Source of the DNA: an uncultured Methanosarcinales archaeon | GTDB lineage: Archaea; Nanobdellota; Nanobdellia; Woesearchaeales; JAGVZT01 | DNA length: 48,765 bases | Direction of reading: 5' to 3' | Assembly (NCBI GenBank): GCA_964419615.1 | Contig: CAYQPU010000008.1 | Location: 996 to 49,760 of the forward strand | Part shown: positions 9,588 through 10,666 of the stretch, in pieces | How positions within the stretch are numbered: position 1 is the stretch's first letter | Layout of the letters: each line of letters opens with the position of its first letter | Translations under genes and position numbers: made by a program | Notes under the pieces: model-generated | Databases searched by the model: none | What the model was told of the DNA's origin: nothing | Seen by the model: only the letters and a program-made list of their open reading frames with translations

Positions 9588-9821
9588 TTATACCTCACCT
9601 TTTCTTACAGAATCTCTTAATGAATATGCTCTTCCTGTAAATTTGACCTTGCATTTCTTACATCTCCAGATTCCTATTGCCAGTCTTTGCACTTGCATAG
9701 CATTACAATATGGACACTTTTTAGATCTTTTGGTTGATGCTTCAATCTCATCAACTCTCTTTCTAATAGTAGATCCATATCTTGCTCCAAAACGTTTTGA
9801 TAATCCTTTTCTTTTCTTCAT
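9588..9821 (-). CDS. rpl37ae: 50S ribosomal protein L37Ae (eL43)
   Basis: RFGARYG, CPYC, GIWRCKKC...FTGRAY motifs. Confidence 0.96.
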   Translation of the reverse strand: MKKRKGLSKRFGARYGSTIRKRVDEIEASTKRSKKCPYCNAMQVQRLAIGIWRCKKCKVKFTGRAYSLRDSVRKGEV

Positions 9822-9849: not shown

Positions 9850-10113
9850 TGGGGCTGCCCGGACTTTCCAAACCTTTTATGATCAAACAAAACACAGCAC
9901 ATGACAACATATTGTGTCGTGGCTATCTTGTAATTATAAAGGCCACGTTAAGGGACTGAAAGTCCCTTATGTTTTGTTCGACCTTTTCTTAAAAGGTCGT
10001 TTTGAACCGGGGTCGTCTGGCTTTTTGCAGTTGTCCCAAACCAGAAAGGATAATTCTTGCAACGAATCCAGAAAATCTCTGATTTTCGCTGAACCAACCT
10101 ACCCCACAGCCCC
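9850..10113 (-). tRNA. trnP: tRNA-Pro(UGG) with three predicted introns (about 10054-10092, 10022-10034, 9864-10000)
   Basis: Acceptor GGGGCTG/CAGCCCC+A73, anticodon stem TCTGG/CCAGA around TGG, T-stem CCCGG/CCGGG; removing the three inserts gives a standard archaeal tRNA-Pro; CCA not encoded. Confidence 0.92.
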
Positions 10114-10139
10114 TGTTATATATGGGGAGATCTTGGCTA

Positions 10140-10147
10140 TTTATAAA
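10140..10147 (-). promoter_or_regulatory. TATA box of tRNA-Pro
   Basis: TTTATAAA 26 nt upstream of tRNA position 1. Confidence 0.65.
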
Positions 10148-10201
10148 CTTTACTCTTCAAATATTGCTAATTAAGAATAAACTAAGAAAAATACTATAAA
10201 C

Positions 10202-10666
10202 TTAGTCTGCACACGTTCCTTCTAGCTTATGGCCATCTCCTGTGAATGTGTATGTTGCTGAGGTTTCGTCATCTGCATATGATATGCTCACATCAAGGCC
10301 AAATGAAGCTCCTGAACTTGTACATACTGAGCCTGCTGTGTCATGAAAACACTTTGAGGTTTGACCAGTTCCTAAACTTGAAGGTGTACATGTTAATGCA
10401 TTTCCTGCAACAGTGACTGTGTTAAGAGTTATACTGTTCACGAGATTATTTTGTATGGTAATATTAAGATCGTCTGTAGATGTAAATGCTGTATATTGAG
10501 GGACTGCTAGGTCACTTGTTCTCCAATATGATGCAGATGCTCTTCCAGCTGCCCCTGAACCAATTCCCGGGATTCCGCCCATAACTCCTACAACTATTAA
10601 AGCAATAATGATAACAACTGCAAGAATTATTAAATATTCAGTTGCTGTTTGAGCTTTTTTATTCAT
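10202..10666 (-). CDS. Type IV pilin (probable major pilin), class III signal peptide of QxSxE type
   Basis: MNKKA|QTATEYLIILAVVIIIALIVVGV; small, Gly/Ser/Thr-rich, 4 Cys; own TATA (10711-10718) and GAGGTGA SD. Confidence 0.9.
   Translation of the reverse strand: MNKKAQTATEYLIILAVVIIIALIVVGVMGGIPGIGSGAAGRASASYWRTSDLAVPQYTAFTSTDDLNITIQNNLVNSITLNTVTVAGNALTCTPSSLGTGQTSKCFHDTAGSVCTSSGASFGLDVSISYADDETSATYTFTGDGHKLEGTCAD

Follow-up and report, generated by a model that had tools for sequence, protein, structure and literature searches.

A probable functional tRNA-Pro(UGG) gene with three bulge-helix-bulge-type introns in a marine Woesearchaeota archaeon

The 48,765-nt stretch of DNA analysed here (the window) carries what is very likely a functional tRNA-Pro(UGG) gene of a marine Woesearchaeota archaeon (DPANN), apparently the only one of its genome, in which four exons are separated by introns in the D-loop, the anticodon loop and the T-loop. 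Splicing of this gene is deduced from its sequence and from that of its orthologs. An earlier note, made from the window sequence alone, had described the gene; every segment that it listed was recovered in place, base for base. Its reading of the locus as a tRNA-Pro(UGG) gene with three introns of the bulge-helix-bulge (BHB) type is supported.

Gene organization and sequence context

The gene, as read from the window sequence, extends from position 10113 to position 9850 of the minus strand, on which all of its parts lie, and comprises four exons and three introns that together make a precursor of 264 nt. Exon 1 (10093-10113) contains the 5' strand of the acceptor stem, bases 8-9, the 5' strand of the D-stem and the D-loop through T20. 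It is followed by a 39-nt hairpin intron at D-loop position 20/20a (intron 1, 10054-10092), whose BHB motif is relaxed. Exon 2 (10035-10053) provides the remainder of the D-loop, the 3' strand of the D-stem, base 26, the 5' strand of the anticodon stem and bases 32-37 with the anticodon TGG, and is separated from exon 3 by 13 nt inserted at the canonical position 37/38 (intron 2, 10022-10034). Exon 3 (10001-10021) runs from base 38 through the 3' strand of the anticodon stem, a 4-nt variable loop and the 5' strand of the T-stem to bases 54-59. The third intron (9864-10000), 137 nt long, strongly folded and located at T-loop position 59/60, is one copy of a multi-copy intron family. Exon 4 (9850-9863) completes the gene with T60, the 3' strands of the T-stem and the acceptor stem and the discriminator A73; the gene does not encode the CCA end.

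ARAGORN calls the joined exons (75 nt) a tRNA-Pro(tgg) with perfect acceptor (7 bp), anticodon (5 bp) and T (5 bp) stems. The D-stem is formed by G10-U25 and two G-C pairs, base 37 is a G and the discriminator is an A. The G+C content of the joined exons is 61%, against 33% for the genome. The window sequence recurs unchanged in independent contigs of three sequencing runs, also at position 9869, whose G creates a mismatch in the T-loop motif.

Upstream of the gene, the sequence AAAGTTTATAAATA (10138-10151, minus strand) resembles an archaeal promoter of the BRE/TATA type. It ends 24 nt before base 1 of the tRNA, and sequence comparison finds the motif at the same distance in most orthologs; we regard it as the putative promoter. 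On the other side, the gene for ribosomal protein L37Ae (eL43; 9588-9821, minus strand) begins 28 nt downstream of the tRNA and is the conserved neighbour that anchors orthology. The upstream neighbour (10202-10666, minus strand) codes for a protein that resembles pilins and carries a class III signal peptide, and its place beside the tRNA is conserved in the sister species. Two open reading frames cross the tRNA gene, one of 86 codons on the plus strand (9914-10174) and one of 49 codons on the minus strand (9948-10097). Both span parts of the introns that the sister species does not conserve and are therefore most likely not genes; the earlier note's view of them as spurious is plausible.

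Detection and census of tRNA genes

Both scanners applied here, ARAGORN and the Rfam tRNA model, miss this gene, in line with the expectation of the earlier note for standard scanners. ARAGORN gives no call at the locus, the Rfam tRNA model has no match there in a search of the whole genome to E = 10, and neither ARAGORN nor the Rfam library finds a tRNA anywhere in the window. When introns are allowed, ARAGORN mis-types genes with several introns, and the present gene becomes a tRNA-Arg once its T-loop intron is removed. Because of this mis-typing, the isotype calls of ARAGORN were replaced by those of a purpose-made stem-anchored parser.

The host genome measures 1.48 Mb in 64 contigs and is 99.4% complete. 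Its closest public relative, as judged from the downstream L37Ae, is a 'Candidatus Woesearchaeota' MAG from the Red Sea, and the locus is present in marine and seawater metagenomes; no RNA run was among the datasets that contain it. Only 10 tRNA genes are visible in the whole genome to ARAGORN or to Rfam at the gathering score. A census that looked for T-arms with matching acceptor strands, followed by the stem-anchored parse, yielded about 39 plausible tRNA genes. This heuristic requires a TTCRA T-loop and near-perfect stems and allows inserts in loops only, and its counts are lower bounds; candidates 1, 11, 12, 16, 29 and 36 are false or duplicated rows. A T-loop insert is found in about 31 of the 39 genes. 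In at least 14 genes, an insert occurs in each of the three loops (D, anticodon and T), so that three introns are common in this genome. The earlier statement that three introns in one tRNA is rare thus holds across archaea but not here.

We found no other tRNA-Pro in this genome, either among Rfam matches to E = 10 or among NGG anticodon arms beside a T-arm, a search that is blind to an intron within bases 32-37 and to a split gene. According to the earlier note, an intact intron-less tRNA-Pro(UGG) elsewhere, together with missing splice-junction reads, would have made the gene a degenerate pseudogene; since no other tRNA-Pro was found, it does not qualify as one on these grounds.

Orthologs in the Woesearchaeales

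In 20 loci of the same order (Woesearchaeales), the tRNA precedes the L37Ae gene by 7-39 nt; 17 of these loci could be parsed into exons and inserts and aligned. After removal of the inserts, all 17 orthologs give the same tRNA. The differences are either compensatory or confined to loops, and no stem is broken; compensatory changes affect pairs 6:67 (TA/CG) and 7:66 (GC/AT) and four pairs of the anticodon stem. A chance origin of the tRNA is excluded by this agreement and its compensatory changes. At the same locus, one ortholog (L065) has no intron, is called by ARAGORN and reaches 55.8 bits against the Rfam tRNA model (RF00005).

The gene was also compared with that of the sister species of the same genus (locus L053, identical to L001). 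All 75 exon positions are identical, as is the 13-nt intron, whereas identity falls to 82% in the 39-nt D-loop intron and no relationship is seen between the T-loop introns. Exon identity combined with intron divergence points to selection on the exons and on intron structure rather than on intron sequence. Such a pattern of conservation is to be expected of a functional gene that contains introns.

Two orthologs, L064 (G024, ~1440-1500) and L066 (G016, ~1400-1470), carry a further intron within the acceptor stem (position 3/4), with perfect central helices on manual reading (TGCG/CGCA and AATG/CATT). With these, the introns of this tRNA occupy four positions across the order. A single tRNA at a single locus thereby carries from zero to three introns among relatives.

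In several loci the gap between the tRNA and L37Ae is too short for a separate promoter. Given that this gap is only 7-39 nt, the tRNA and the operon for L37Ae, RNA polymerase subunit P and prefoldin probably form one transcript, in which the 5' end of the mRNA would be made by 3' processing of the tRNA.

The D-loop and anticodon-loop introns

The anticodon-loop intron has a canonical position, a canonical motif and a minimal inner loop. The anticodon stem runs on into the central helix TTTG/CAAA, flanked by the bulges GG|A and AA|G, exactly as had been described, and the arrangement is identical in G001. This is the one intron of the gene in which two 3-nt bulges are separated by a full 4-bp helix. 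Ten of the 17 orthologs possess an intron at 37/38, each with a 4-bp helix that includes one G.U pair in three cases, and the intron appears to come and go among relatives.

The D-loop intron has a narrower distribution. An intron at 20/20a was found only in four genomes (the present one, G000, and G001, G003 and G004), which all belong to one family, and it appears to be a younger gain within that family. In the window, the helix CAGCGAA/TTCGTTG adjoins the central helix GTTG/CAAG, in which G16 (10098) and G (10056) are unpaired, in agreement with the earlier description. Base 16 is a G in both the window and the sister species, and the motif accordingly contains a G.G or G.A mismatch. Three of the four central positions are paired here and all four in G003 (CTTG/CAAG) and G004 (CTTG/CGAG), as judged by manual reading. 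The pairs of the intron hairpin are kept by three compensatory changes among the four genomes. A metagenomic DNA contig from a relative lacks exactly these 39 nt, and this allele, together with the intron-less orthologs, fixes the D-loop junction to within 1 nt. The splice point, which the earlier note had left uncertain by about this margin, therefore gives an identical product either way.

Folding calculations did not recover all of these motifs. The minimum-energy fold of the whole precursor forms neither the D-loop nor the T-loop motif, and the consensus fold of the four D-loop regions prefers another register for the short central helix. Structure by itself does not pin down the D-loop cut. 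We therefore call both motifs relaxed rather than canonical. The BHB motifs appear to be strict in relatives and relaxed in this copy for the D- and T-loops. No paralogs of the 39-nt and 13-nt introns were found in the genome.

The T-loop intron and its spreading family

An intron at 59/60 is present in 16 of the 17 aligned orthologs. T-loop bases 54-57 pair with four intron bases located two bases before the 3' junction. Ten orthologs have TTCA/TGAA as the resulting central helix and five have TTCG/CGAA, which shows covariation of the intron with base 57 of the exon. The flanking bulges read AA|N on one side and AG|T, TA|T or AA|T on the other. The window alone has TTCA/GGAA, with A57 (10003) and G (9869) unpaired and with bulges AA|A and AG|T, as had been proposed for this insert; three of its four central positions are paired, against four of four in 15 orthologs. 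We considered the odd 3' end TGGAAAG as the product of a 1-nt insertion and rejected this, as copies of the intron family indicate a simpler T-to-G substitution at 9869. An equivalent mismatch occurs in two other tRNA genes of the genome. The tallies given here and above include one locus of an unpublished genome (L056, G006), whose publication needs the permission of the depositors; without it, the T-loop intron is present in 15/16 orthologs, TTCA/TGAA in 9 and the 37/38 intron in 9/16, and the conclusions are unchanged.

The signature TTCR AA|N ... YGAA AG|T is shared by nearly all T-loop inserts of the genome, in about 30 other tRNA genes. The 137-nt intron itself folds with a z-score of -6.2 relative to shuffled controls, and it has 18 further blastn matches (64-90% identity) at 14 loci of the genome. 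Twelve of these 14 loci lie inside other census tRNA genes, mostly as T-loop inserts and in a few cases in the D- or anticodon loop. The T-loop intron of the sister species, located at the same site, is different, and its first 40 nt match T-loop introns of the present genome. A differing intron that matches introns of other tRNA genes suggests that the site is old and that its content has been replaced by members of a modular, spreading family. Thus, the 59/60 site appears to be common to the whole order while its content turns over, and the window's T-loop intron appears to be a recent member of a structured family whose copies have spread among the tRNA genes of this genome.

A member of the same family occupies the T-loop of a tRNA-Trp(CCA) gene elsewhere in the genome (G000:C5:56835-57092, plus strand), where it stands head to tail behind an intron-less tRNA-Trp(CCA). 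A third Trp(CCA) candidate, with three inserts, was noticed on C16. No C/D-box guide RNA could be seen by eye in the introns, and Rfam returned only a chance-level match to a miRNA.

Splicing enzymes

The genome encodes one splicing endonuclease, EndA (G000:C3:32058-32714, minus strand, corresponding to L082:1474-2133, minus strand), a 219-aa protein in which a single N-terminal domain (PF02778, 50 bits) is combined with a single catalytic domain (PF01974, 98 bits). The Tyr, His and Lys residues that align by eye with those of 1A79 and 3IEY_A are kept. Among known structures, it comes closest to the catalytic subunit of Nanoarchaeum equitans EndA and to the alpha4 enzyme of M. jannaschii, and pairwise alignment shows it to be collinear with the latter (1A79). 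A six-frame Pfam search of the genome gave a single PF01974 match and thus no second EndA or beta subunit, and phmmer (--max, E < 0.1, all open frames) recovered no paralog. With one N-domain and one C-domain, the protein is not a three-unit fusion. Among the relatives with a match, 57 of 59 genomes likewise encode one EndA.

Loops that confer specificity have been defined as residues 90-98 of the Nanoarchaeum (NEQ) enzyme and as the ASL/CSL insertion in the N-terminal part (PMC3488258). In pairwise alignments, the EndA of this genome has a 6-residue gap where the basic NEQ loop lies next to the catalytic His, and the ARMAN-2 insertion likewise aligns with a gap. It possesses an N-terminal tail of about 50 Lys-rich residues, and matches in many relatives reach into this tail. 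The ligase RtcB is also encoded (PF01139, 538 bits).

According to the literature, only EndAs of the (alpha-beta)2 and epsilon2 types with a specificity loop cut non-canonical introns, and the alpha4 type is strict (PMC5829648, PMC3488258). In line with this, the earlier note had stated that introns at such positions need a broad-specificity EndA; this expectation is not borne out by a genome with a single alpha-type enzyme and no beta or epsilon form. In our reading, the motifs of most introns in the genome are strict, and an alpha4 enzyme could cut such introns at any location.

Discussion

We propose that transcription of the tRNA-Pro(UGG) gene would start from a TATA promoter of its own and would probably extend into the L37Ae operon that follows. 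The precursor would fold such that each insert presents a BHB with two 3-nt bulges 4 bp apart. The single alpha-type EndA, most simply a homotetramer, would then cut six sites, RtcB would join the four exons into the 75-nt tRNA, and RNase P, RNase Z and the CCA-adding enzyme would finish the molecule. What fits this scheme least well is that two of the three motifs are imperfect here and that the only EndA is of the type considered strict in the literature.

Alternatively, the gene may be functional but require a factor in addition to the EndA found, without which the relaxed motifs of the D- and T-loops would not be cut, a possibility that we consider rather unlikely and yet the strongest of the alternatives. 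This factor could be an unrecognised structural subunit or an RNA chaperone, or else the Lys-rich N-terminal tail of EndA could take over the part of the specificity loops. The absence of the Nanoarchaeum and ARMAN loops from an enzyme collinear with that of M. jannaschii speaks for such a factor, as do the length of the tail and its matches in many relatives. However, neither the six-frame Pfam search nor phmmer revealed an EndA paralog, most introns of the genome appear cuttable by an alpha4 enzyme, and the tail is a low-complexity sequence whose role is putative. It is a matter of speculation that the tail might replace the missing loops. The relaxed motifs of this gene would offer a test of what EndA tolerates.

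It is very improbable that the locus is instead a decaying pseudogene, disabled by a mobile structured element and other DNA, with proline decoded by a gene that was not assembled or not recognised. It is true that the 137-nt insert belongs to a proliferating repeat, that a mismatch affects two of the three cleavage motifs in this genome and that the assembly is divided into 64 contigs. Nevertheless, decay is difficult to reconcile with exons that are 100% identical to those of the sister species while the inserts diverge, with intact stems and a conserved promoter, or with insert sites that up to 16 orthologs retain, along with motif helices that covary. Moreover, the 99.4% complete genome has no other tRNA-Pro that we could find, and the same kind of mismatch occurs in two other of its tRNA genes.

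Group I and group II introns are far larger than inserts of 39 and 137 nt. Self-splicing of the long inserts, or their removal by another route that bypasses EndA, is hardly credible: the very stable fold of the 137-nt insert, the narrow type of the EndA present and the report of group I introns in Woesearchaeota (PMC6125680) would favour it, but a search of Rfam, with its intron families, gave no match either at the gathering score or when E values up to 5 were allowed, and insert ends lying in 3-nt bulges 4 bp apart, with covariation with exon base 57, are the signature of EndA.

A working, protein-spliced tRNA-Pro(UGG) gene thus remains the reading that we prefer, and precedents for it exist in Thermoproteales. 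Three introns each were described for the pre-tRNA-Pro(UGG) of Pyrobaculum islandicum and the pre-tRNA-Glu(UUC) of P. calidifontis (Sugahara et al., 2008, as summarised in PMC4390854). The multi-intron tRNAs of Thermoproteales and the present gene have in common three protein-spliced BHB introns, non-canonical sites in the D- and T-arms and a failure of tRNA finders to see them, and the P. islandicum case even concerns the same isoacceptor. The differences are that the present host is a mesophilic marine DPANN archaeon with 33% G+C, that it has a single alpha-type EndA whereas that of Thermoproteales is an (alpha-beta)2 enzyme with a Crenarchaea-specific loop, and that the T-loop intron site is here conserved across a whole order. 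Families of transposed tRNA introns are also known in Thermoproteales (Fujishima et al., 2010, cited in PMC4390854). They resemble the 137-nt intron, which has approximately 18 paralogs that occupy further tRNA genes and different loop positions; in contrast to them, the copies found here are long (120-190 nt) and form several hairpins, and the 39-nt and 13-nt introns have no paralogs. A eukaryotic nuclear tRNA gene with introns in the same three arms shows a similar distribution, but depends on the eukaryotic Sen complex, and no homology is implied.

In DPANN archaea, alpha4-type EndAs have been linked to increased tRNA gene disruption and incomplete tRNA predictions (Kaneta et al., 2018, PMC5829648). 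The alpha4 enzymes of that study are said to carry the L3 (Nanoarchaeum-type) loop, whereas pairwise alignment shows no such insertion in the EndA described here. The survey included one Woesearchaeota genome, and we found no description of the intron load of Woesearchaeota tRNA genes beyond it in the literature that we searched.

It is tempting to go further and suggest, very tentatively, that the T-loop 59/60 intron is an ancient positional fixture of most tRNA genes in the order, that its content has repeatedly been overwritten by a mobile family of long folded introns, and that all of these, relaxed motifs at non-canonical positions among them, are handled by a minimal loop-less alpha4-type EndA, perhaps aided by its Lys-rich tail. 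We consider this doubtful as a whole. If true, it would contradict the accepted view that EndA architecture and intron diversity are linked and would provide a sequence-tractable system for following the spread of protein-spliced introns.

The gene has implications for annotation as well as for biology. As it shows, tRNAs of DPANN genomes are under-reported by automated annotation, with 10 found here of at least 39. The series of orthologs with zero to three introns at the same locus may be used to date the gain, loss and replacement of introns. Its combination with a single loop-less alpha-type EndA would allow a direct biochemical test of the substrate range of an archaeal splicing endonuclease. 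As this is the only proline tRNA found in the genome, translation in this archaeon would require a single 264-nt precursor to be cut correctly at six sites and ligated three times.
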